Shown: piece after piece, positions 3,018 through 30,226 of the stretch
Numbering within the stretch: the first letter of the stretch is position 1
Layout of the letters: each line of letters opens with the position of its first letter
Assembly: GCA_035514255.1 (NCBI GenBank)
Contig: DATKBG010000202.1
Span: 1 to 36,303, forward strand
Direction: 5' to 3'
DNA: 36,303 bases
Source: Acidimicrobiia bacterium
GTDB lineage: Bacteria > Actinomycetota > Acidimicrobiia > Spongiisociales > UBA11373
Position numbers and translations under genes: made by a program
Notes under the pieces: generated by a model
Told to the model about the DNA's origin: nothing
Database searches by the model: none
What the model saw: only the letters and a program-made list of their open reading frames with translations

Positions 3018-3437
3018 ATGGCCGATACCTCAACCCCGGATCCCGGGGACACCACCGAACACGATCCGACCGAGACCATCGACCCGGTGGGCGAGGCGAG
3101 AGCGGTTCGCGAACGCGAAGCAGCGGCCGGGATCCCCGGCCTCGCCGGCTACGCCCTGATCGTGGCTTCCGGTCCCCGACGCGGCATGCACTGGGCCCTT
3201 CCCGAGGGGAGCACCGAGGCCGGTCGCGACGTCGACGCGCCCATCTACCTCGCCGACGTGACCGTGTCCAGACACCACGCCGAGTTCACCGTCGAAGACG
3301 GAGTCCTCACCGTGCGCGACCTCGGTTCGACCAACGGAACCTACGTGAACGGCCGTCGGGCCGATACGGCGGTCCTCGACGCCGCCGACGAGGTCATCAT
3401 CGGACGCTTCCACCTCGTGGTCGCCCGCGGCGCATGA
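3018..3437 (+). CDS. garA: FHA-domain regulator, GarA/OdhI-like
   Basis: The C-terminal FHA domain (GR ... DVTVSRHHAEF ... DLGSTNGTYVNG ... GDEV-like ... IGRFHLV) closely resembles GarA. The N-terminus is Thr-rich (TTEHDPTETID). ATG 3018 was chosen inside track ORF 2889..3437 because the upstream part overlaps gcvH. Confidence 0.85.
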   Translation: MADTSTPDPGDTTEHDPTETIDPVGEARAVREREAAAGIPGLAGYALIVASGPRRGMHWALPEGSTEAGRDVDAPIYLADVTVSRHHAEFTVEDGVLTVRDLGSTNGTYVNGRRADTAVLDAADEVIIGRFHLVVARGA

Positions 3438-4129
3438 GCGGGGGAGAGCGCATCACGATCGGCGACGTCGCCGAGGCCCTCAAGGCCGAGTTCCCTGAGG
3501 TGAGCGTGTCCAAGATCCGATTCCTCGAGAGCGAGGGGTTGATCAACCCTCCACGCACCTCGAGCGGTTATCGCGAGTTTCGCTCCGAGGACGTCGAGCG
3601 GGTCCGCTACATCCTTCGCCAGCAGCGCGACCACTTCCTGCCCCTGAAGGTGATCAAGAGCAACCTCAGATCCCTGGAGCGGGGAGAGGAGCCCACCCTG
3701 GCGCCGACGCCGGGGCCGCCCGCCGCCGCCTACTTCGGTGAGATGACACCGCCGACCCTCGACGCCGCCGACCTCGCCCGTAGCGCCGGAATGCCGGCAT
3801 CGCTCGTCGACGAGCTGGTGGATCACGGCATCATCGTTCCTACCGAGACGCCCGATGGCCCCCTGTTCGGCGCCGATGACGTCGAGATCGCCAAGGCGGC
3901 ATGGCGGATGGTGGGGCACGGCCTCGAGTCGCGCCATCTCCGGATAATCCGGCAGGGCGCGAACCGCGAGGTAGACCTGCTCCGGCAGATGACGGCGACG
4001 CTGCTGCGCCACGCCAGCCCCGCTTCGCGCCGTCAGGCCGCCGAGGTCCTCGCCGAGGTCGCCCAGGCGGCGAGGACGATGCAGGAGGCGATGGTGCGAG
4101 CCGCCCTCCGAGAAACACTCAACGGCTGA
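3434..4129 (+). CDS. MerR-family transcriptional regulator (Rv1828/FtsR-like)
   Basis: The N-terminal HTH reads ITIGDVAEAL ... VSKIRFLESEGLINPPRTSSGYREF. There is an ATGA overlap with the garA-like stop. Confidence 0.85.
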   Translation: MSGGERITIGDVAEALKAEFPEVSVSKIRFLESEGLINPPRTSSGYREFRSEDVERVRYILRQQRDHFLPLKVIKSNLRSLERGEEPTLAPTPGPPAAAYFGEMTPPTLDAADLARSAGMPASLVDELVDHGIIVPTETPDGPLFGADDVEIAKAAWRMVGHGLESRHLRIIRQGANREVDLLRQMTATLLRHASPASRRQAAEVLAEVAQAARTMQEAMVRAALRETLNG

Positions 4130-7313: not shown

Positions 7314-7358
7314 CCGGTACTTAGTATTTGGTACCAAGTACTAAGTACCAAATACCGG
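7314..7358. repeat. Imperfect 21-bp-stem palindrome built from GTAYTTG-type heptamers (CCGGTACTTAGTATTTGGTACCAAGTACTAAGTACCAAATACCGG)
   Basis: By hand pairing, 17 Watson-Crick plus 2 G-T pairs out of 21 around a CAA loop. It starts 7 nt after the TAA at 7305-7307 and ends 62 nt before gcvT GTG 7421. Confidence 0.85.
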
Positions 7359-7407
7359 CCAGGGGAGTGCCGTCAGGACTTCGAGCCTTGAGACTGAGGA
7401 CGCTCAC

Positions 7408-7413
7408 TAGAGT
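7408..7413 (+). promoter_or_regulatory. Possible -10 hexamer (TAGAGT) giving a leaderless gcvT transcript
   Basis: The TAnnnT hexamer ends 7 nt before GTG 7421, and no Shine-Dalgarno lies between them. There is no convincing -35. Confidence 0.3.
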
Positions 7414-7420
7414 CCCGCCC

Positions 7421-8467
7421 GTGCACCGCCGATCACCGCTTCATGGGGCCAACGAGGCCCTCGGTGCTCGTTTCACGCCCTTCGGAGACTGGGAGATGCC
7501 GCTCCAGTACGACGGCACGCTCGCCGAACACGCTGCGGTGCGTACCGGCGTCGGGGTCTTCGATGTCTCCCATCTCGGTCGATTCGAGGTCGCTGGATCG
7601 GAGGCAGCCGAGCTGGTCGGATCGATCCTCACCAACGACCTGGGCAAGATCACACCGGGCCGCTGTCAGTACTCGCTGATCCTCAACGATCGGGCCGGCA
7701 TCCTCGACGACATCGTGGTCTGGTGGCTCGAGCCGGACCGGCTGCTCGTCCTGCCGAACGCCGCCAACCACGAACGGGTGATGGCGCGGTTCGCCGAAGC
7801 AGCTGGATCCAACACACGCGTCTCAGACCTGCGTGATTCGACTGCCCTTCTCGCCGTCCAGGGCCCCGATGGCCCCCGCGTCCTCTCGGAGGGTCTTGGC
7901 GCGGCGCCCAACCGCCACCGCGTGGTCATCGCGGGCGACGCGATCGTCGCTGGCACCGGGTACACCGGTGAGGCCGGGGGAGAAGCGGTGGTGCCGCGGG
8001 CGCAGGCAGACGCCGCGCTCCAGGCGATCCTGAAGGCGGGGGCTACGCCGTGTGGTCTTGGTGCACGCGACACGCTTCGGCTCGAGTTCGGCCTGCCCTT
8101 GTGGGGGCAGGACATCGACGAGACCACCGACCCGATCGAGGCGGGACTGGCCTGGGCGGTCGGCTGGGACACCGCCTTCGACGGCAAGGAGGCTCTCGAG
8201 CCCCGCCGCCATCAAGACCCCACCCGCGCCCGCGTCGGATTCGTCCTCAACGACCGCCGACCGCCCCGGCACGGTTACCGGATCCGGTCTGGCTCCTCGG
8301 ATGGCGAGGTGACCAGTGGCAACTACAGCCCGACGCTGGAGCGTGGGATCGGGATGGGCTACCTCGCTCCGCCGGCCCCCGACGACCAGACTGCGGTGGA
8401 AGTCGAGGTGCGGGACCATTGGGTGCCCGCCCGTCTCGTCGACATGCCCTTTGTGAGGCGCTCATGA
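7421..8467 (+). CDS. gcvT: Aminomethyltransferase (glycine cleavage T protein)
   Basis: It reads SPLHGANEALGARFTPFGDWEMPLQY ... GVFDVSHLGRFEV ... TGYTGEAGGE. GTG 7421 was chosen because the upstream part of the track ORF runs through the heptamer repeat. Confidence 0.9.
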   Translation: MHRRSPLHGANEALGARFTPFGDWEMPLQYDGTLAEHAAVRTGVGVFDVSHLGRFEVAGSEAAELVGSILTNDLGKITPGRCQYSLILNDRAGILDDIVVWWLEPDRLLVLPNAANHERVMARFAEAAGSNTRVSDLRDSTALLAVQGPDGPRVLSEGLGAAPNRHRVVIAGDAIVAGTGYTGEAGGEAVVPRAQADAALQAILKAGATPCGLGARDTLRLEFGLPLWGQDIDETTDPIEAGLAWAVGWDTAFDGKEALEPRRHQDPTRARVGFVLNDRRPPRHGYRIRSGSSDGEVTSGNYSPTLERGIGMGYLAPPAPDDQTAVEVEVRDHWVPARLVDMPFVRRS

Positions 8468-9798
8468 CGTTCACCCCCCACACCGACGAACAGGAGCAGC
8501 GGATGCTGACCGCGCTCGGCCTGGCCGACGCGGACGAGTTGTTCGCCCACATCCCGAAGGCAGCCAGGCTGACCGAGCCGCTCGACGTGGCCGCCGGGAT
8601 GTCGGAACTCGAGGTGATGCGTTACGTCGAGGACCTCGGACGCCAGAACCGCAGCGGGCTCGTGTGCTTCGCCGGAGGAGGCGTCTACGACCATCACCTG
8701 CCGCCAGTCGTCCGTTCGCTGACGATGCGGCCCGAGTTCGTCACCTCCTACACCCCCTATCAAAGCGAGGTGGCCCAGGGAGTGCTTCAGGCGCTGTTCG
8801 AGTACCAGTCGATGGTGGCGGCGATAACCGGTCTGCCGGTGGCCAATGCCTCTCTCTACGACGGCGCATCGGCAGGAATCGAAGCGGTCAACCTGGCACT
8901 GGCGGAAACCGGCCGCGACACCGTCTGGGTCTCACGCGGGCTGCATCCCCACACCCGTCAGGTCATCGCCACCTTCGCCCACGCCCGAGGCGTGACGATC
9001 ATCGAGCATCCGCTCGAGGACGGACGCACCGCGTGGAATCGCGACGCCACGGGACCACCGGCAGCTCTGGTCTTCGGTCAGCCCAACTATCTCGGGATCA
9101 TCGAGGAGTACGACACAGCCGTGGCGCTGGCCGGCGAACTCGGCGCGCTGACCGCGGCCTCCGTCGACCCGATGTTGTTGGGCATCCTGCGCACACCCGG
9201 CGCTGCCGGCTGCGACATCGCCTTCGCCGAGGGCCAGCCCCTCGGAAACCCGCTGTCGTTCGGTGGGCCGGTCGTGGGGATCTTCGCCGTCGCCGAGCGG
9301 CTGATGCGGCGCATTCCGGGGCGGCTCTCTGGGGAGACCGTCGACCGCGAGGGGCGACGCGCCTACACGCTGACCCTGCGTACCCGCGAACAGGACATCC
9401 GCCGTGAGAAGGCCTCGTCGAACATCTGCACCAACCAGACCCTCAATGCGGTAGCCGCTGCCATCCACCTCGCCTGGCTCGGACCCGACGGACTCGCAGA
9501 AGTCGGCCGACAGAGCAGTCACAAGGCCCGCTATCTCCGCGGACGGCTCCTCGACCTACCGGGGCTCTCCGCCATCAGCGACGCTCCGTACGGTCGAGAG
9601 TTCGGGGTGGTGCTGCCCATCGATGCCGCCTCAGCAGTGACGAGCATGGCCGACCGCGGGTATCTGGCGGGCATTCCGCTCGACCACGACTATCCCGAGT
9701 ACCGCAACGGCCTCCTGGTCGCGGTCACCGAGAAGCGGAGCCGCCAGGAACTCGACAGCTTCGCCGACGCGCTCGGGGAGGTGATCGCCGATGGCTGA
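8464..9798 (+). CDS. gcvPA: Glycine dehydrogenase (decarboxylating) subunit 1
   Basis: It starts MTFTPHTDEQEQRMLTALGL and contains YTPYQSEVAQGVLQALFEYQ. There is an ATGA overlap with the gcvT stop. Confidence 0.92.
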   Translation: MTFTPHTDEQEQRMLTALGLADADELFAHIPKAARLTEPLDVAAGMSELEVMRYVEDLGRQNRSGLVCFAGGGVYDHHLPPVVRSLTMRPEFVTSYTPYQSEVAQGVLQALFEYQSMVAAITGLPVANASLYDGASAGIEAVNLALAETGRDTVWVSRGLHPHTRQVIATFAHARGVTIIEHPLEDGRTAWNRDATGPPAALVFGQPNYLGIIEEYDTAVALAGELGALTAASVDPMLLGILRTPGAAGCDIAFAEGQPLGNPLSFGGPVVGIFAVAERLMRRIPGRLSGETVDREGRRAYTLTLRTREQDIRREKASSNICTNQTLNAVAAAIHLAWLGPDGLAEVGRQSSHKARYLRGRLLDLPGLSAISDAPYGREFGVVLPIDAASAVTSMADRGYLAGIPLDHDYPEYRNGLLVAVTEKRSRQELDSFADALGEVIADG

Positions 9799-11266
9799 AC
9801 CGGGAGGACGAGCGACCAGCACCCCGCTGATGGGCGGCAGCCCGGAGCCGACGCTGATCGAACTGAGCGTGCCGGGGCGTCGTGCCTGGTCCTTCCCGCC
9901 CCTCGACGTGCCCGAAGACGATCTGGGGTTCCCCGAGACAACGGACTCGCTTCCGGCGCTCCCGGAGGTCTCCGAACGCGACCTGGTCGCCCACTTCACC
10001 CGGCTGGCGCACCGCAACTTCGCCGTCGATCTCGGCGCCTATCCGCTGGGCTCGTGCACGATGAAGTACAACCCGAAGGTGTGTGACTGGGCTGCCGAGC
10101 AAGGGGGCTTCCGCGACCTGCACCCGGCTGCGCCAGCCGAACTGACGCAGGGGGCGTTGAAGGTCCTCCTCGAAGCCGAGTCGATCCTGTGCGCCATCAC
10201 CGGTATGGCCCGGGCGACCTTCCAGCCACCCGCAGGAGCCTCCGGCGAACTGACGGGCCTTCTCATCATGCGGGCCTATCACGAGTCCCAGGGTCGTAAT
10301 CCCACGAAGATCCTCATTCCCGATTCGGCCCATGGCACCAACCCGGCCTCGGTCACCCTCGCTGGCTATCGGGCGGTGCAGGTCCCCAGCGACGATCGCG
10401 GCATGGTCGATCTCGAGGCACTCCACGCTGCCGTCGACGATGACGTCGCTGGCTTCATGCTCACCAATCCCAACACGCTCGGCCTTTTCGAGGAGGATGT
10501 GATCGAGATGGCCCGCGCCATCCACGACGTCGACGGGCTCGTCTACTACGACGGGGCGAACCTCAACGCCATCCTCGGGGTGGCCCGTCCCGGGGACATG
10601 GGCTTCGACATCGTCCATTCCAACCTCCACAAGACTTTCGCCACCCCGCACGGTGGGGGAGGCCCTGGTGCGGGCCCGGTCGCCGTGGTGGAGCATCTCG
10701 TCCGCTTCTTGCCCGGGCCGTTGCCCGTCGACGCCGAGGGCGCGCTCAGCTGGGAGATGCCAGCCGACTCGGTGGGTCGGGTGCATGGCAACCACGGCAA
10801 CTTCCTGGTGGTGCTCCGTGCCCTCACCTACATGCGCCTGCTCGGAGCCGAGGGGCTGCGGGTAGTGGCCGATCGCAGCGTGCTCAATGCTCGCTACCTG
10901 GCCTCCCTGGTGGAGGAGCGGTACCCCATTCCGTACGACGCTCCACCGATGCACGAGTTCGTCGCGTCGGCTGCTGCGCTCAAGAAGGCGACCGGCGTGC
11001 GGGCCATGGATGTCGCCAAGGCGCTGCTCGACCGGGGCTTCCACGCCCCGACCATCTACTTCCCGCTGATCGTCGATGAAGCCCTCATGCTCGAGCCGAC
11101 CGAGACCGAGTCGCCCGAGACCATCGAGGCACTAGCCGACGCCCTCAACGAAATCGCCATCCTCGCCGCCACGGACGCCGCCCACGTCCAGGCATCACCC
11201 CACAAGACGCCGGTGTCGCGTCCGGACGATGCGCTGGCGGCTAGGAACCCCAAGCTGACCTGGTAG
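9791..11266 (+). CDS. gcvPB: Glycine dehydrogenase (decarboxylating) subunit 2
   Basis: It has LGSCTMKYNPK and HSNLHKTFATPHGGGGPGAGP, the PLP-lysine region. It overlaps the end of gcvPA by 8 nt. Confidence 0.92.
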   Translation: MAEPGGRATSTPLMGGSPEPTLIELSVPGRRAWSFPPLDVPEDDLGFPETTDSLPALPEVSERDLVAHFTRLAHRNFAVDLGAYPLGSCTMKYNPKVCDWAAEQGGFRDLHPAAPAELTQGALKVLLEAESILCAITGMARATFQPPAGASGELTGLLIMRAYHESQGRNPTKILIPDSAHGTNPASVTLAGYRAVQVPSDDRGMVDLEALHAAVDDDVAGFMLTNPNTLGLFEEDVIEMARAIHDVDGLVYYDGANLNAILGVARPGDMGFDIVHSNLHKTFATPHGGGGPGAGPVAVVEHLVRFLPGPLPVDAEGALSWEMPADSVGRVHGNHGNFLVVLRALTYMRLLGAEGLRVVADRSVLNARYLASLVEERYPIPYDAPPMHEFVASAAALKKATGVRAMDVAKALLDRGFHAPTIYFPLIVDEALMLEPTETESPETIEALADALNEIAILAATDAAHVQASPHKTPVSRPDDALAARNPKLTW

Positions 11267-24449: not shown

Positions 24450-24458
24450 ATCGAAATA

Positions 24459-24575
<117 letters not shown>

Positions 24576-24851
24576 CTTCGAATGCTCATCCCTGAGCACT
24601 CCATAGCGAGCACGCACGTCTACGAATTCGATTCAAGCCCTCGACCGATTAGTACCGGTCGGCTGAACGCATTGCTGCGCTTACACCTCCGGCCTATCAA
24701 CCTGATGTTCTGTCAGGGGTCTTACCCGCTTGATGCGGTGGGAGATCTCATCTCGGAGCCGGCTTCGCACTTAGATGCCTTCAGCGCTTATCCGTTCCGT
24801 ACGTGGCCAACCAGCCGTGCCTTTGGCAAGACAACTGGCACACCAGAGGTA

Positions 24852-24883
<32 letters not shown>

Positions 24884-24910
24884 CTCTCCTCAAATCTCCT
24901 GCGCCTGCGA

Positions 24911-24942
<32 letters not shown>

Positions 24943-24961
24943 AAACCCAGCTCGCGTACCG

Positions 24962-25037
<76 letters not shown>

Positions 25038-25549
25038 CCCTTGCCGTCGATATGGACTCTTGGGCAAGATTAGCCTGTTATCCCCGGGGTACCTTTTAGC
25101 CGATTAGCCATGGCGCTTCCACATGCCACCATGGGATCATTAGGCCCTGCTTTCGCATCTGCTCGACTTGTAGGTCTCGCAGTCAAGCTCCCTTGTGCCC
25201 TTACGCTCAACGCCCGATTGCCAACCGGGCTGAGGGAACCTTTGGGCGCCTCCGTTACACTTTAGGAGGCCACCACCCCAGTGAAACTGCCCGCCAGGCA
25301 CTGTTCCTGATCCGGATAACGGACCGAGGTTAGAAGCTCAGTATGTCAAGGGTGGTATTTCAAGGTCGACTCCACGAAAGCTAGCGCCTCCGCTTCCAAG
25401 TCTCCCACCTATCCTACACATAACAGACTAAACTCCAATGCCAAGCTGCAGTAAAGGTCCCGGGGTCTTTCCGTCCTGTCGCAGGTAGTGAGCATCTTTA
25501 CTCACACTGCAATTTCGCCGAGTCCGTGGTCGAGACAGCGCCCAAGTCG

Positions 25550-25604
<55 letters not shown>

Positions 25605-26347
25605 CACGCTTGTTACTCCCCTCGCAGGAACCATATGTCCCCGAGGGTGGCCGGATCATTTCTGCCCGGCTCCTCATGTCGCCATGAGGGTCGGACTGTC
25701 TCATCGCCGCTCATGCGGCGCCTGGCGTACAGTCTCTGAGGATCCCAGGAGGATCGCTTCCTTTGGTCGAGCTCGCTGCTTGCCGGTTCCGTTCATCTCG
25801 TAGGCGAGGTGAACGATCCGTTCGAAGCCAGTCGGCTCGAGGTGCTCTCTACTTCGCAACGACCTGACGATCGATGCGAACAGCTCGAAATCCCGGCGCT
25901 TCACCTCGAGCGGCCAAACCTCGAAGAACGGAAGGATCCGATCAATGAGGTCCTGACGGCTCGATACGCCGTAGACATCTACGTTGCTGCGCGGACCCTT
26001 CGACCGGACGCCGCCGCACCCGAAGGTGGCGGCGAGTCGCTCGAGGATCTCGCGGTCCCGCTCATGTTGTGAGACCTGGAACACGGCAGTCACCTGCCAG
26101 CCCCGGGTCTTTCGTACATGTGGGTTCTTGTGGAACGAGATGGAGAAGCAACCTTCACCATCGACGAATCCACTCACCCATCGCGGGTCGAGAGCGCGAA
26201 TCCTGGTTTCCTGCTGATTGTCCGCACCGGACGGATTTTCACTGCCCATGTCGTGACCCTATGTCGGGCCTGTGACATGGACGAGTACCGCCGGATACTC
26301 GGATGTTCCAGCATATAGCCAGGTTTACCCACCGCCAGTAGGTACTA
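25605..26347 (-). mobile_element. Group I intron in 23S rRNA helix 69, inserted between E. coli positions U1923 and C1924
   Basis: The exons read ...GGCGGUAACUAUAACCGU | intron | CCUAAGGUAGCGAAAUUCC... The 5' exon ends in U, which can wobble-pair with the intron guide sequence GCGGU. The intron ends in G. The P7 strands are GACUGU / ACAGUC in the context CAGAGACUGUA ... GAGACAGUCC, and the P8 hairpin is CGCCGC-AUGA-GCGGCG. A P9 hairpin has a GCGA loop, followed by further 3' hairpins. Confidence 0.85.
25701..26249 (-). CDS. LAGLIDADG homing endonuclease, single-motif (homodimer) type, I-CeuI/I-CreI-like
   Basis: It has one LAGLIDADG motif, VSGFVDGEGCFSI, and a FQVSQHERDREILERL block typical of the family. 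The protein is 182 aa and lies wholly inside the intron. Confidence 0.88.
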   Translation of the reverse strand: MGSENPSGADNQQETRIRALDPRWVSGFVDGEGCFSISFHKNPHVRKTRGWQVTAVFQVSQHERDREILERLAATFGCGGVRSKGPRSNVDVYGVSSRQDLIDRILPFFEVWPLEVKRRDFELFASIVRSLRSREHLEPTGFERIVHLAYEMNGTGKQRARPKEAILLGSSETVRQAPHERR

Positions 26348-27303
26348 ACGGTTATAGTTACCGCCGCCGTTTACCGGGGCTTTGGTTCAAAGCTTCGCTT
26401 CCGAAGAAGCTAACCTTTCCCCTTAACCTTCCGGCACCGGGCAGGCGTCACAGCGTATACGTCGTCTTGCGACTTAGCACGCTGCTGTGTTTTTAGTAAA
26501 CAGTCGCTTGGGCCGAGTCACTGCGGCCTCATCGAGCTCCGGGACGCGAAGTCCCATCACTCTACCGAGGCGCCCCTTCTCCCTAAGTTACGGGGCCATT
26601 TTGCCGAGTTCCTTGACCACGGTTCTCTCGCTCGCCTTGGTATTCTCTACCTGTCCACCTGTGTCGGTTTGGGGTACGGGCACCCCGTGCACTCGCTAGA
26701 GGTTGTTTCTTGGCGGCATGGACGTTCGGCAGCTTCCCCTTAATCGGGTCGGCATCCCGCCTCAGGCTTCGTGGGATCCGGATTTGCCTAGATCCCGCCC
26801 TACACGGTTACCCCGGGTCAACCAACGCCCGGGTCTGCTTATCCTTCCGCGTCACCCCATCGCTGGCCTAGTACCGGCTGGGTCGGTAGGCCCCGAAGGG
26901 CTTTCCTTAGCAAACCGGGTTCGGCCTGGGCGCGCACGTGGTGGTACTGGAATATCAACCAGTTGTCCATCGACTACGCTTCACAGCCTCGCCTTAGGTC
27001 CCGACTAACCCTGGGCGGACGAGCCTTCCCCAGGAAACCTTGGACATTCGGCGGGGGAGATTCGCACTCCCCTTTCGCTACTCATGCCGGCATTCTCACT
27101 TGAACGGCCTCCACGACTGGCTCACGCCGCCGCTTCGCTGGCCGTTCAACGCTCTCCTACCGATCCCGTCACCTGGACCTGTCCCCGAAAGAACAGGCCT
27201 GGCTATTGACGAAATCCCGCAGCTTCGGTGCTGAACTTGAGCCCCGTTACATTTTCCGCGCAGAACCACTCGACCAGTGAGCTGTTACGCACTCTTTAAA
27301 GGA

Positions 27304-27334
<31 letters not shown>

Positions 27335-27902
27335 TTGTGCAATTCCACATCGTTCCCCACTTAGTTCAGACTTAGGGACCTTAGCTGGCGATCTGGGCTG
27401 TTTCCCTTTCGACCAATGAGGCTCATCCCCCATGGTCTGACTGCCGCGCTGTGGCACCATGAAATTCGGAGTTTGATTGGGGTCGGTAAGCTTGTTGGCC
27501 CCCTTACCCATTCAGTGCTCTACCTCCATGGTGGAACGCGCGACGCTAGCCCTAGAGCTATTTCGGAGAGAACCAGCTATCGCCGAGTTTGATTGGCCTT
27601 TCACCCCTATCCACAGGTCATCCCCCAAGTTTTCAACCTTGGTGGGTTCGGGCCTCCACGAGGTCTTACCCTCGATTCACCCTGCCCATGGATAGATCAC
27701 TCGGCTTCGGGTCTAGAGCACGCGACTAGTCGCCCTATTCAGACTTGCTTTCGCTGCGGCTTCGGCTCACGCCTTAACCTTGCCACGTACTGCTAACTCG
27801 CCGGCTCATTCTTCAAAAGGCAGGCCGTCAGGTCCCGAAGGACCCTCCGACTGCTTGTAAGTTTACGGTTTCAGGTTCTATTTAACTCCCCTCACCGGGG
27901 TG

Positions 27903-27944
<42 letters not shown>

Positions 27945-28471
27945 TGGGTAGTACTTAGCCTTACGAGGTGGTCCTCGCAGATTCACACGGGATTTCACGT
28001 GCCCCGTGCTACTTGGGAAATCCACCAGGAGCTCAGTGCGCTTTCGCCTACAGGGCTGTTACCTTCTATGGCCTGCCTTTCCAGGCATGTTCGACTAGCA
28101 CCTGAGTTTGTAACTCCTTGACGGTTCCGGTGGACCGTCAGGTGACTCCCACAACCCCAGCATGACAACGGCACCGGCCTATCACGCCACACTGGTTTGG
28201 GCTCTTCCCGTTTCGCTCGCCGCTACTCCGGGAGTCGCTGTTGCTTTACTTTCCTCGGGGTACTGAGATGTTTCAATTCCCCCGGTTACCTTTACCGGTC
28301 CTATGTGTTCAGACCGGAATGACTGGGCATTACCCCAGACGGGTTCCCCCATTCGGACATCCCCGGATCAGTGCCTGCTTGGCGGCTCCCCGAGGCTTAT
28401 CGCAGCCTGCTACGTCCTTCATCGGCTCCCAGCGCCAAGGCATCCACCGTAAACCCTTAGTAGCTTGAATC

Positions 28472-28690
28472 TTGTGAATCCAAGACGCTTGTGCTCGCTA
28501 TGCAGTTCTCAAGGTGCATGAGATAGACGGACCGAAGCCCGACTCCCTCACGACTGAACAATGTGCCCATGCCGACATCCGATCGATGCCGTCGCGGCCG
28601 AAGCCGCTGCGTCGCCGATCTTCGATCGGCATGAGTAGCCAGTCTCATTGACTAGGTAGCTGTTGGGGCTCGAGGCCCCGGTTGCTCCTT
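28472..28690 (-). other. 16S-23S internal transcribed spacer without tRNA genes
   Basis: These 219 nt lie between the rRNA ends. I saw no cloverleaf or T-loop (GTTCGAATC-like) signature. Confidence 0.8.

Positions 28691-30226
<1,536 letters not shown>

Follow-up and report, generated by a model that had tools for sequence, protein, structure and literature searches.

Site 1923 of the large-subunit (LSU) rRNA gene is known from green-algal chloroplasts as the position of a group I intron, and lies in helix 69, the helix that forms intersubunit bridge B2a of the ribosome. In bacteria, LSU introns carrying LAGLIDADG homing-endonuclease genes have been described at L1917, L1931, L1951 and L2593 (Haugen et al. 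2007, PMC1995217), the hosts at the first three of these sites being Synechococcus C9 and C1, Thermotoga, Simkania and Coxiella (PMC1995217). A 2024 survey of the candidate phyla radiation (CPR) found 23S inserts at sites 1917, 1931, 1952, 2593, 2604 and 2657 (PMC11270868). In archaea, introns of subgroup IB4 have been reported at site 1923 and at LSU/1931, and about half of 39 archaeal introns carry LAGLIDADG genes (Nawrocki, Jones and Eddy 2018, PMC6125680). Here we analyse a 743-nt insert in the 23S rRNA gene of contig DATKBG010000202.1 (36,303 nt; the whole stretch is called the window), which belongs to an uncultured member of the Acidimicrobiia (Actinomycetota). The comparative evidence makes it very probable that a mobile group I intron, equipped with a LAGLIDADG homing-endonuclease gene, occupies site 1923 here, and that it would splice by the standard route.

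By description, the insert shares much with each of these systems. The introns at L1917 and L1931 are likewise P2-less, with a complex P5 and an open reading frame (ORF) that runs from P6 through P7, P3 and P8, and the L1917 intron of Synechococcus C9, with 743 nt and a 181-aa endonuclease that also has a single LAGLIDADG motif, is close to the window's insert in size (PMC1995217). The L1917, L1931 and L1951 sites nevertheless lie 6–28 nt away from 1923 (6–8 nt for L1917 and L1931), and P1 with its internal guide sequence and the endonuclease target differ. The archaeal IB4 introns occupy the same site and are likewise missed by RF00028, the Rfam group I intron model, but belong to another domain of life. 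The CPR group I introns encode similar LAGLIDADG_1 proteins of about 180 aa with a single motif and cluster in 23S domains IV–V (PMC11270868), whereas their sites exclude 1923 and the hosts of the family described here are mainly Acidimicrobiia. The literature searched, whose coverage is incomplete, yielded no description of a bacterial intron at site 1923 or of rRNA introns in Acidimicrobiia or Actinobacteria, which is absence of evidence only.

A 743-nt insert splits helix 69

Two alignments locate the insert (Table 1). In the Rfam LSU model alignment, the gene is interrupted between ...UAACUAUAACCGU and CCUAAGGUAGCGAA, where the 5′ side can also be read as ...GGCGGUAACUAUAACCGU and the 3′ side as CCUAAGGUAGCGAAAUUCC. 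In a global alignment of the whole gene with an annotated E. coli rrl, a single 743-nt insertion follows nt 1924 of the 2905-nt copy, a nucleotide that corresponds to canonical U1923 in the helix-69 register of Ψ1911/1915/1917. The interrupted gene is the only 23S gene in the window.

An earlier reading of the contig, made from the sequence only, had given coordinates, flanks and a length of 743 nt that prove exact, and had placed the insertion at the I-CeuI site, 1923; this placement is borne out both by the alignment between U1923 and C1924 and by organellar I-CeuI-type introns at the same junction. The compensated helix-69 change that it pointed out, G1921C with C1909G, is also present, as C1921 and G1909 (GGCGG...CCGU). 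Its statement that the gene is colinear with E. coli apart from the insert holds for the insert itself and gives way at smaller expansions near positions 272–278, 1163–1180 and about 1404. I-CeuI is reported to leave a CTAA overhang when it cuts (PMC2790883), and CTAA falls within the CCUAAGG that directly follows the insertion junction.

Table 1. Features of the rRNA operon, the intron and its endonuclease gene in the window
Feature	Position	Strand	Remarks
16S rRNA gene	30226..28693	minus	Rfam
23S rRNA gene (host gene)	28470..24629	minus	3842 nt including the intron; Rfam RF02541, 2751.9 bits, model positions 1–2925; aligned with E. coli rrl
5S rRNA gene	24573..24458	minus	Rfam
5′ exon end, helix 69 nt 1906–1923 (GGCGGUAACUAUAACCGU)	26348..26365	minus	Last seven nt (26353–26347, including intron nt 1) are the 5′ strand of P1
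Group I intron	26347..25605	minus	743 nt, between E. coli U1923 and C1924, helix 69; first nt 26347, terminal (omega) G 25605
P1	exon AACCGU + intron U (26353–26347) with guide GGCGGUG	minus	Comparative model
Internal guide sequence GGCGGUG (3′ strand of P1)	26336..26330	minus	Tracks the host helix-69 variant in 74/74 clean cases
P3 5′ strand CCUGGC	26323..26318	minus	5/6 pairs compensatory; 98.3% of cells paired
P4–P6 domain, 5′ side, with P5 extension	26313..26202	minus	Comparative model
P4 (UGCUGG/UCAGCA)	26313–26308 / 26217–26212	minus	Invariant
P5	26303–26300 / 26224–26221	minus	3/4 pairs compensatory
P5a	26294–26284 / 26243–26227	minus	Bulged U and A-rich bulge; 7/7 compensatory; 99.6% paired
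P5b	26282–26274 / 26252–26244	minus	Comparative model
P5c	26270–26266 / 26259–26255	minus	54% paired
Homing-endonuclease ORF	26249..25701	minus	182 aa; single LAGLIDADG motif (GFVDGEG, acidic E32); Pfam PF00961
P6 5′ strand	26211–26202	minus	P6 closes a 452-nt loop
P6 3′ strand CCUGGGAUCC	25749..25740	minus	4/6 scored pairs compensatory; outermost two pairs poorly aligned
J6/7	25739–25735	minus	Catalytic core, 3′ side (25739..25694)
P7 5′ strand GACUGU	25734–25729	minus	Aligns to RF00028 P7 consensus
P3 3′ strand GCCAGG	25726–25721	minus	Covaries with CCUGGC
P8	25720–25705	minus	5/5 pairs compensatory
J8/7 AUGAG	25704–25700	minus	Contains the ORF stop UGA
P7 3′ strand ACAGUC	25699–25694	minus	Aligns to RF00028 P7 consensus
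P9 region	25691..25606	minus	Compensatory pairs in P9.0, P9, P9.1 and P9.2
P9.0	25691–25690 / 25607–25606	minus	Both pairs covary (2/2)
P9	25689–25672	minus	6/7 compensatory
P9.1	25670–25650	minus	Invariant loop GCAGAAAUGA; 5/5 compensatory
P9.2	25647–25619	minus	6/6 compensatory
Conserved GUAACAA	25616–25610	minus	Invariant, just before the 3′ splice site

A conserved and covarying group I fold

Several comparisons among related inserts support a group I ribozyme. First, we aligned 77 distinct inserts, including that of the window, with MAFFT and without reference to any structure; the fold was derived by inspection of alignments and then projected from the window sequence, and pairs were counted on the MAFFT alignment. 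Standard pairs fill 90.3% of 6677 cells, compared with 33–46% when the 3′ partners are slid by 1–3 columns. Changes on both sides occur in 60 of the 88 pairs, against a mean of 38.6 in 500 shuffles, none of which reached the observed value, and the covariation score is 0.325 against 0.139; the kinship of the sequences inflates this shuffle control and leaves the slid-partner control unaffected. Covariation supports P1, P3, P5, P5a, P6, P8, P9.0, P9, P9.1 and P9.2, and P4 and most of P7 are invariant and so provide neutral evidence. There is no P2 between P1 and P3, which starts 6 nt after P1, and P8 directly follows the 3′ strand of P3. For two conserved elements of the 3′ region, GUAACAA (25616–25610) and the P9.1 loop GCAGAAAUGA (around 25665–25655), no pairing partner was found; they are probably tertiary contacts.

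Second, the splice sites and the guide are kept in register with the exon. All 77 inserts have the U·G pair at the 5′ splice site, involving U1923, and G is the last nucleotide of every intron. The pair between exon position 1921 and the guide is G–C in 50 inserts, G–U in 14 and C–G in 13. Where helix 69 reads GGCGG/CCGU, the guide is GGCGGU (13 of 13), and where it reads GGCCG/CGGU, the guide is GGCCGU or GGCUGU (61 of 61). The guide and the upstream helix-69 strand change in step: the ribozyme guide follows the polymorphism of its host rRNA, a behaviour that is hard to explain unless P1 is used. The sequence-only reading had drawn P1 as ACCGU/UAG with CUG-GCGGU (the slash marks the junction); the comparative model bears out this pairing and that reading's P7, P8 and P9 assignments, and the guide GCGGU/GGCGGU, the P7 strands GACUGU/ACAGUC, the P8 and P9 hairpins and the terminal G all lie where it had put them.

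Third, we built a family covariance model of the P7–P8–P9–P9.1 domain from 58 relatives, leaving the window out. It has one match in the 36-kb window, at 25648–25745 on the minus strand (112.8 bits, E = 8e-24), and neither the E. coli rrn locus nor an intron-less relative gives any. On the other introns of two relatives, loci L017 and L016, it scores 97, 57 and 55 bits, and the 97- and 55-bit matches lie in introns that themselves pass the gathering score of RF00028 (65.7 bits in L017 and 56.7 bits in L016, the latter an ORF-less second intron). Organellar introns encoding I-CeuI-type proteins score 39, 29 and 29 bits. These matches connect the insert with curated group I introns through likeness of both sequence and predicted structure.

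Two other pairings were considered and set aside. The local alignment produced by Rfam would place P3 and P4–P6 inside the 3′ part of the ORF; this was rejected because the 5′-proximal CCUGGC covaries perfectly with GCCAGG. A helix between UACCUA in the P1 loop (26344–26339) and UGGGUA 3′ of the guide (26331–26326), which could act as a switch competing with part of P1, is unsupported: among 66 distinct introns the longest complementary run averages 4.17, compared with 3.65 after shuffling, and 31 of 200 shuffles matched the run of the window. That pairing is present in one subfamily, with one compensatory change.

A LAGLIDADG gene under selection in the P6 loop

The insert contains one long ORF, on the same strand as the rRNA. 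Its 182-aa product, which the sequence-only reading had recognized as a LAGLIDADG protein, matches Pfam LAGLIDADG_1 with 66.8 bits against a cut-off of 23.1 (E = 3.6e-18), and has no match in NCBIfam. The body of the ORF (about 26201–25750) fills the P6 loop, L6, and both of its ends overlap ribozyme helices. The closest solved structures in the PDB are halves of meganucleases of the I-OnuI/I-SmaMI type (E from 1e-35 to 4e-43; 3qqy, 4lox and others), each half of which aligns with residues ~20–153 of the window protein. Those enzymes are two-domain monomers, whereas the window protein has a single domain and is presumably a homodimer. Within the GFVDGEG motif, D30, G31, E32 and G33 do not vary among 33 aligned relatives, and E32 aligns with the acidic glutamate of the I-CeuI motif, E66. 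The predicted cleavage target is the intron-less 23S allele at the intron site, TAACTATAACCGTCCTAAGGTAGCGAA.

The gene is conserved as a protein-coding sequence. Over the codons encoded in L6, column entropy is 0.88, 0.71 and 1.47 at codon positions 1, 2 and 3, the signature of strong purifying selection on the protein. The 16 N-terminal and 15 C-terminal codons, which overlap P5b–P6 and P6′–P8, show no such relaxation at the third position; this fits a double constraint, from protein and ribozyme together, and explains the near-invariant peptide ends M.S.NPSGADNQQET and GSSET.RQAP. The frame is open in 72 of the 78 copies and broken in the other 6.

Distribution and inheritance

The family is widespread. 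A search with the protein gave 1277 relatives at E ≤ 1e-3, the best 120 of which are 59–94% identical to it, and at least 486 GTDB species representatives encode relatives (one genome was scanned per GTDB species). About 65 of the best 80 loci are labelled Actinomycetota, mostly Acidimicrobiia. At all 78 loci for which both flanks could be read, the gene lies inside an insert of 690–805 nt at exactly the same 23S position, and this set yielded the 77 distinct sequences that were aligned; the assemblies with this architecture include the whole-chromosome deposits OZ244202.1 and OY969923.1.

Divergence between the introns correlates with divergence of the 1.5 kb of 23S exon upstream (Mantel Spearman r = 0.74, p = 0.001, 66 loci), which suggests that the element has been passed on mostly by vertical descent, or else exchanged between related hosts. 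It is maintained in hosts with up to ~33% difference between their 23S genes, and the most divergent copies (L073 and L076) sit in clearly different 23S genes. A long residence fits these data, and only a splicing-competent element in helix 69 would be expected to sustain one.

Intron-less genes are found close by. The nearest intron-bearing 23S gene (L006) is 91.7% identical to that of the window, and the closest intron-less one among the metagenome matches listed (L132) is 91.6% identical, placing genes with and without the intron both at ~8% divergence from the window. No near-identical intron-less relative that would show presence and absence within one species was among those matches, and the comparison speaks to coarse patchiness only. 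The C1921/G1909 variant of helix 69 is shared by at least 120 intron-less alleles, and potential homing targets therefore exist.

Taxonomic labels of metagenome bins are unreliable for rRNA contigs: L045 (‘Acidobacteriota’) and L049 (‘Actinomycetes’) hold identical sequence, and L010 and L013 have identical or near-identical 23S genes and introns although their bins bear different phylum labels. In about one relative in four (some 20 of loci L001–L080) a second insert follows 8 nt downstream, right after CCUAAGGU (site 1931), and in some of them yet another intron interrupts the 23S gene further on. Such additional introns lie at 3223–3523 in L016 and at 3791–3884 and 4524–4809 in L017; the window has the intron at 1923 alone.

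Relation to I-CeuI and organellar introns

The I-CeuI-type introns of chloroplasts and other organelles (Chlamydomonas CeLSU.5 type) share the site and the ribozyme class. Organellar loci L081 and L083 have the same junction as the window, ...AACnGU/CCUAAGG, the organellar sequence reading ..UAACUAUGACAGU/UAAG.../CCUAAGGUAGCG. Both kinds of intron have a P2-less group I core with the motifs CUAUAUGCUGGAAC, AAUCAGCAGGAAAC, GGAUCCUCAGAGACUAUACG and AUAGUCC, and in both the P6 loop encodes a LAGLIDADG protein with a single motif. The shared core motifs recur in neighbouring L1931-type introns, and are therefore a sign of the intron class and not of the site. The window intron, by contrast, has a P5a-b-c extension of ~90 nt, which is missing from the two organellar examples examined; its ORF starts in P5b and ends in J8/7, whereas the organellar ORF stays within L6; and its host is a bacterium.

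The endonucleases themselves differ. The I-CeuI query used here agrees with PDB 2ex5 (206 of 207 residues identical). The window protein is 27% identical to I-CeuI over 111 aa, and I-CeuI is not among its 60 best PDB matches. I-CeuI itself has 228 relatives at E ≤ 1e-10, the best 120 being 49–100% identical to it, and these relatives form a cluster at 50–84% identity to which the window protein does not belong. Three contigs sampled from these relatives are taken to be organellar because their GC contents are 29–42%. One of the I-CeuI relatives, L081 (JBAVHL010000072.1, from a ‘Gallionella sp.’ metagenome-assembled genome, MAG), had been a candidate for a bacterial member of that group; at 29% GC it looks organellar and was rejected as such. 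By these sequence comparisons, the I-CeuI lineage is a separate, organellar set with which the window endonuclease does not cluster, and the two enzymes are not close relatives. A fair statement would be that the intron shares its site and ribozyme class with the I-CeuI intron and carries an endonuclease of a different lineage.

Counter-evidence and alternative explanations

A number of observations weigh against a mobile intron that splices by the standard route. RF00028 scores the insert at 16.2 bits (E = 0.21), below its gathering score of 50. Within the fold, P5c is weakly aligned and poorly supported, the sixth pair of P7 fails to form in 49 of the 77 sequences, and a search for P10, between the 3′ exon and the P1 loop, gave no convincing and consistent candidate. 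The AUG of the ORF (26249–26247) lies inside the 3′ strand of P5b, with no clear ribosome-binding site upstream, which makes the route by which the protein would be expressed unclear; given this position of the start codon, translation and ribozyme folding should exclude each other. The intron is of the P2-less LSU type and probably of subgroup IB4, to which archaeal site-1923 introns are assigned, and its P5 extension resembles one described as IC1-like (PMC1995217). Finally, the boundaries, the covarying fold, the protein family with selection on it and the distribution are shown, and splicing, the activity and target of the endonuclease, and homing are deduced from comparisons of sequences; the shuffle control is inflated as stated above.

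The RF00028 score, which the sequence-only reading had put forward as a possible refutation, is a misleading test here and was not taken as decisive. A weak score is to be expected, because RF00028 failed on every one of the archaeal LSU introns, those at LSU/1923 and LSU/1931 among them, whereas models of subtypes IB4 and IA3 found them (PMC6125680); in the window, the P6 ORF and the P5 extension break the generic model. Its local alignment does match AGACUGUACGCCAGG...ACAGUC to the P7/P3 consensus at high posterior probability, over a stretch that covers P7, P3 and P8.

Among the alternatives, the one that survives best, although we consider it unlikely, accepts that the intron splices and holds that its ORF is mainly a maturase or is decaying, the element being inherited vertically rather than homing. 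The strong correlation of intron and host divergence, the six broken frames and the entanglement of the ORF with the ribozyme core at both ends would all be compatible with such a history. A LAGLIDADG motif whose acidic residue is invariant in 33 aligned proteins would be less so, as would the strong purifying selection on the loop-encoded part and the coexistence, at ~8% divergence from the window, of 23S genes with and without the intron, the intron-less targets with the same helix-69 variant being common.

It is less probable still that the insert is a group I intron by descent that no longer splices efficiently, being retained in the mature 23S rRNA or wholly dependent on a protein cofactor. 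There are precedents: Everett et al. 1999 (cited in PMC11270868) announce in their title a group I intron that stays unspliced in bacterial 23S rRNA, the L1931 intron of Simkania negevensis, and maturase-dependent splicing has been reported for the Thermotoga LSU intron (PMC3984707); the missing P10 would also suit this view. The compensatory changes in nearly every helix and the guide that tracks exon changes, on the other hand, argue for continuing selection on the fold and on P1; 743 extra nucleotides in bridge B2a would be hard to tolerate; and the element has persisted in hosts with widely differing 23S genes.

An error of assembly or binning, or a dead copy of the rRNA gene, is very improbable. 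Bins do misplace rRNA contigs, as L081 and the identical sequence under two phylum labels in L045 and L049 illustrate, but the operon is complete and scores like intact ones, it lies on a 36-kb contig of ordinary Acidimicrobiia housekeeping genes, and 78 independent assemblies share its architecture, a pair of which were deposited as whole chromosomes. An intervening sequence (IVS) cut out by RNase III, with the 23S rRNA left in unligated fragments, is effectively refuted: although such sequences are the most frequent inserts in 23S genes of bacteria outside the CPR, the RNase III-cleaved IVS sites matched in the CPR survey are 23IS2 and 23IS4 and not the 1917–1952 region (PMC11270868), the duplex between the insert ends (–36.7 kcal/mol, compared with –40.0 ± 4.7 for shuffles) gives no terminal stem beyond chance, and the insert holds a conserved group I core and an endonuclease gene.

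Proposed mechanism and significance

As a mobile group I intron with a homing-endonuclease gene, the insert would work as follows. In the pre-rRNA, the guide GGCGGU would pair with the exon end ACCGU and set U1923 in a U·G wobble; the P3–P7 pseudoknot core, with its large P5abc-like extension, would bind an exogenous guanosine that attacks after U1923; P9.0 and the terminal G would position the 3′ splice site; and ligation of the exons would restore helix 69. The 182-aa protein, encoded in the P6 loop and running into core helices at both ends, would act as a homodimer and cut intron-less 23S alleles at the site, into which the intron would then be copied by repair. The known picture of how such elements work is unchanged by this proposal.

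The window intron is of a well-known kind, and the bacterial lineage that it represents is large and apparently undescribed. The rRNA introns of bacteria continue to be presented as rare exceptions, and the tables consulted list LSU sites at 1917, 1931, 1951/1952, 2593 and beyond, without 1923. The sequence-only reading had likewise called such an intron rare and an actinobacterial example notable; this stands for the literature searched and fails for sequence databases, with at least 486 species representatives encoding relatives. Standard annotation misses the family, which falls below threshold for RF00028 and has no NCBIfam match, and rRNA surveys based on primers or models may mishandle these 23S genes. 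We suggest tentatively, as a claim that could well prove wrong, that this is the first recognized bacterial lineage of site-1923 group I introns, mostly vertical in descent and centred on the Acidimicrobiia, with a P5abc-like extension of its own and an endonuclease distinct from I-CeuI on the same conserved helix-69 target. If so, splicing-dependent maturation of 23S rRNA would be a routine trait of a major class of soil and freshwater bacteria, and the I-CeuI site would have a second, independent meganuclease scaffold.

For the hosts, ribosome production would have to depend on splicing inside an intersubunit-bridge helix. For ribozyme biology, the family offers about 80 or more natural variants with rich covariation and a guide that follows changes in the host exon. 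The endonuclease is a candidate for a new specificity or scaffold directed at a site present in nearly all bacteria.

Genomic context

The window comes from the chromosome of an uncultured bacterium of the Acidimicrobiia (Actinomycetota). The flanking genes are ordinary chromosomal ones, encoding glycine-cleavage T, PA and PB proteins, adenosine deaminase, PheT and others; the GcvPB protein is 94% identical to that of an Acidimicrobiia MAG, all named best matches are from Acidimicrobiia or Actinobacteria, and GC content outside the rRNA operon is ~67%. The glycine-cleavage cluster lies at 7328–11266, with the T protein followed by P-protein subunits A and B in overlapping or abutting ORFs, and adenosine deaminase, an MPG glycosylase and pheT are found elsewhere in the window, an ordinary housekeeping context.

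Rfam finds a complete minus-strand rRNA operon whose scores are on a par with those of intact operons. The 16S–23S spacer (28471–28692) is short, at 222 nt, and holds no tRNA gene; no tRNA gene was found anywhere in the window. The smaller expansions of the 23S gene relative to E. coli lie at window positions 28195–28112 (52 + 26 nt near 272–278), 27216–27166 (8 + 26 nt near 1163–1180) and 26942–26874 (69 nt after ~1404), and are possibly lineage-specific rRNA expansion segments.

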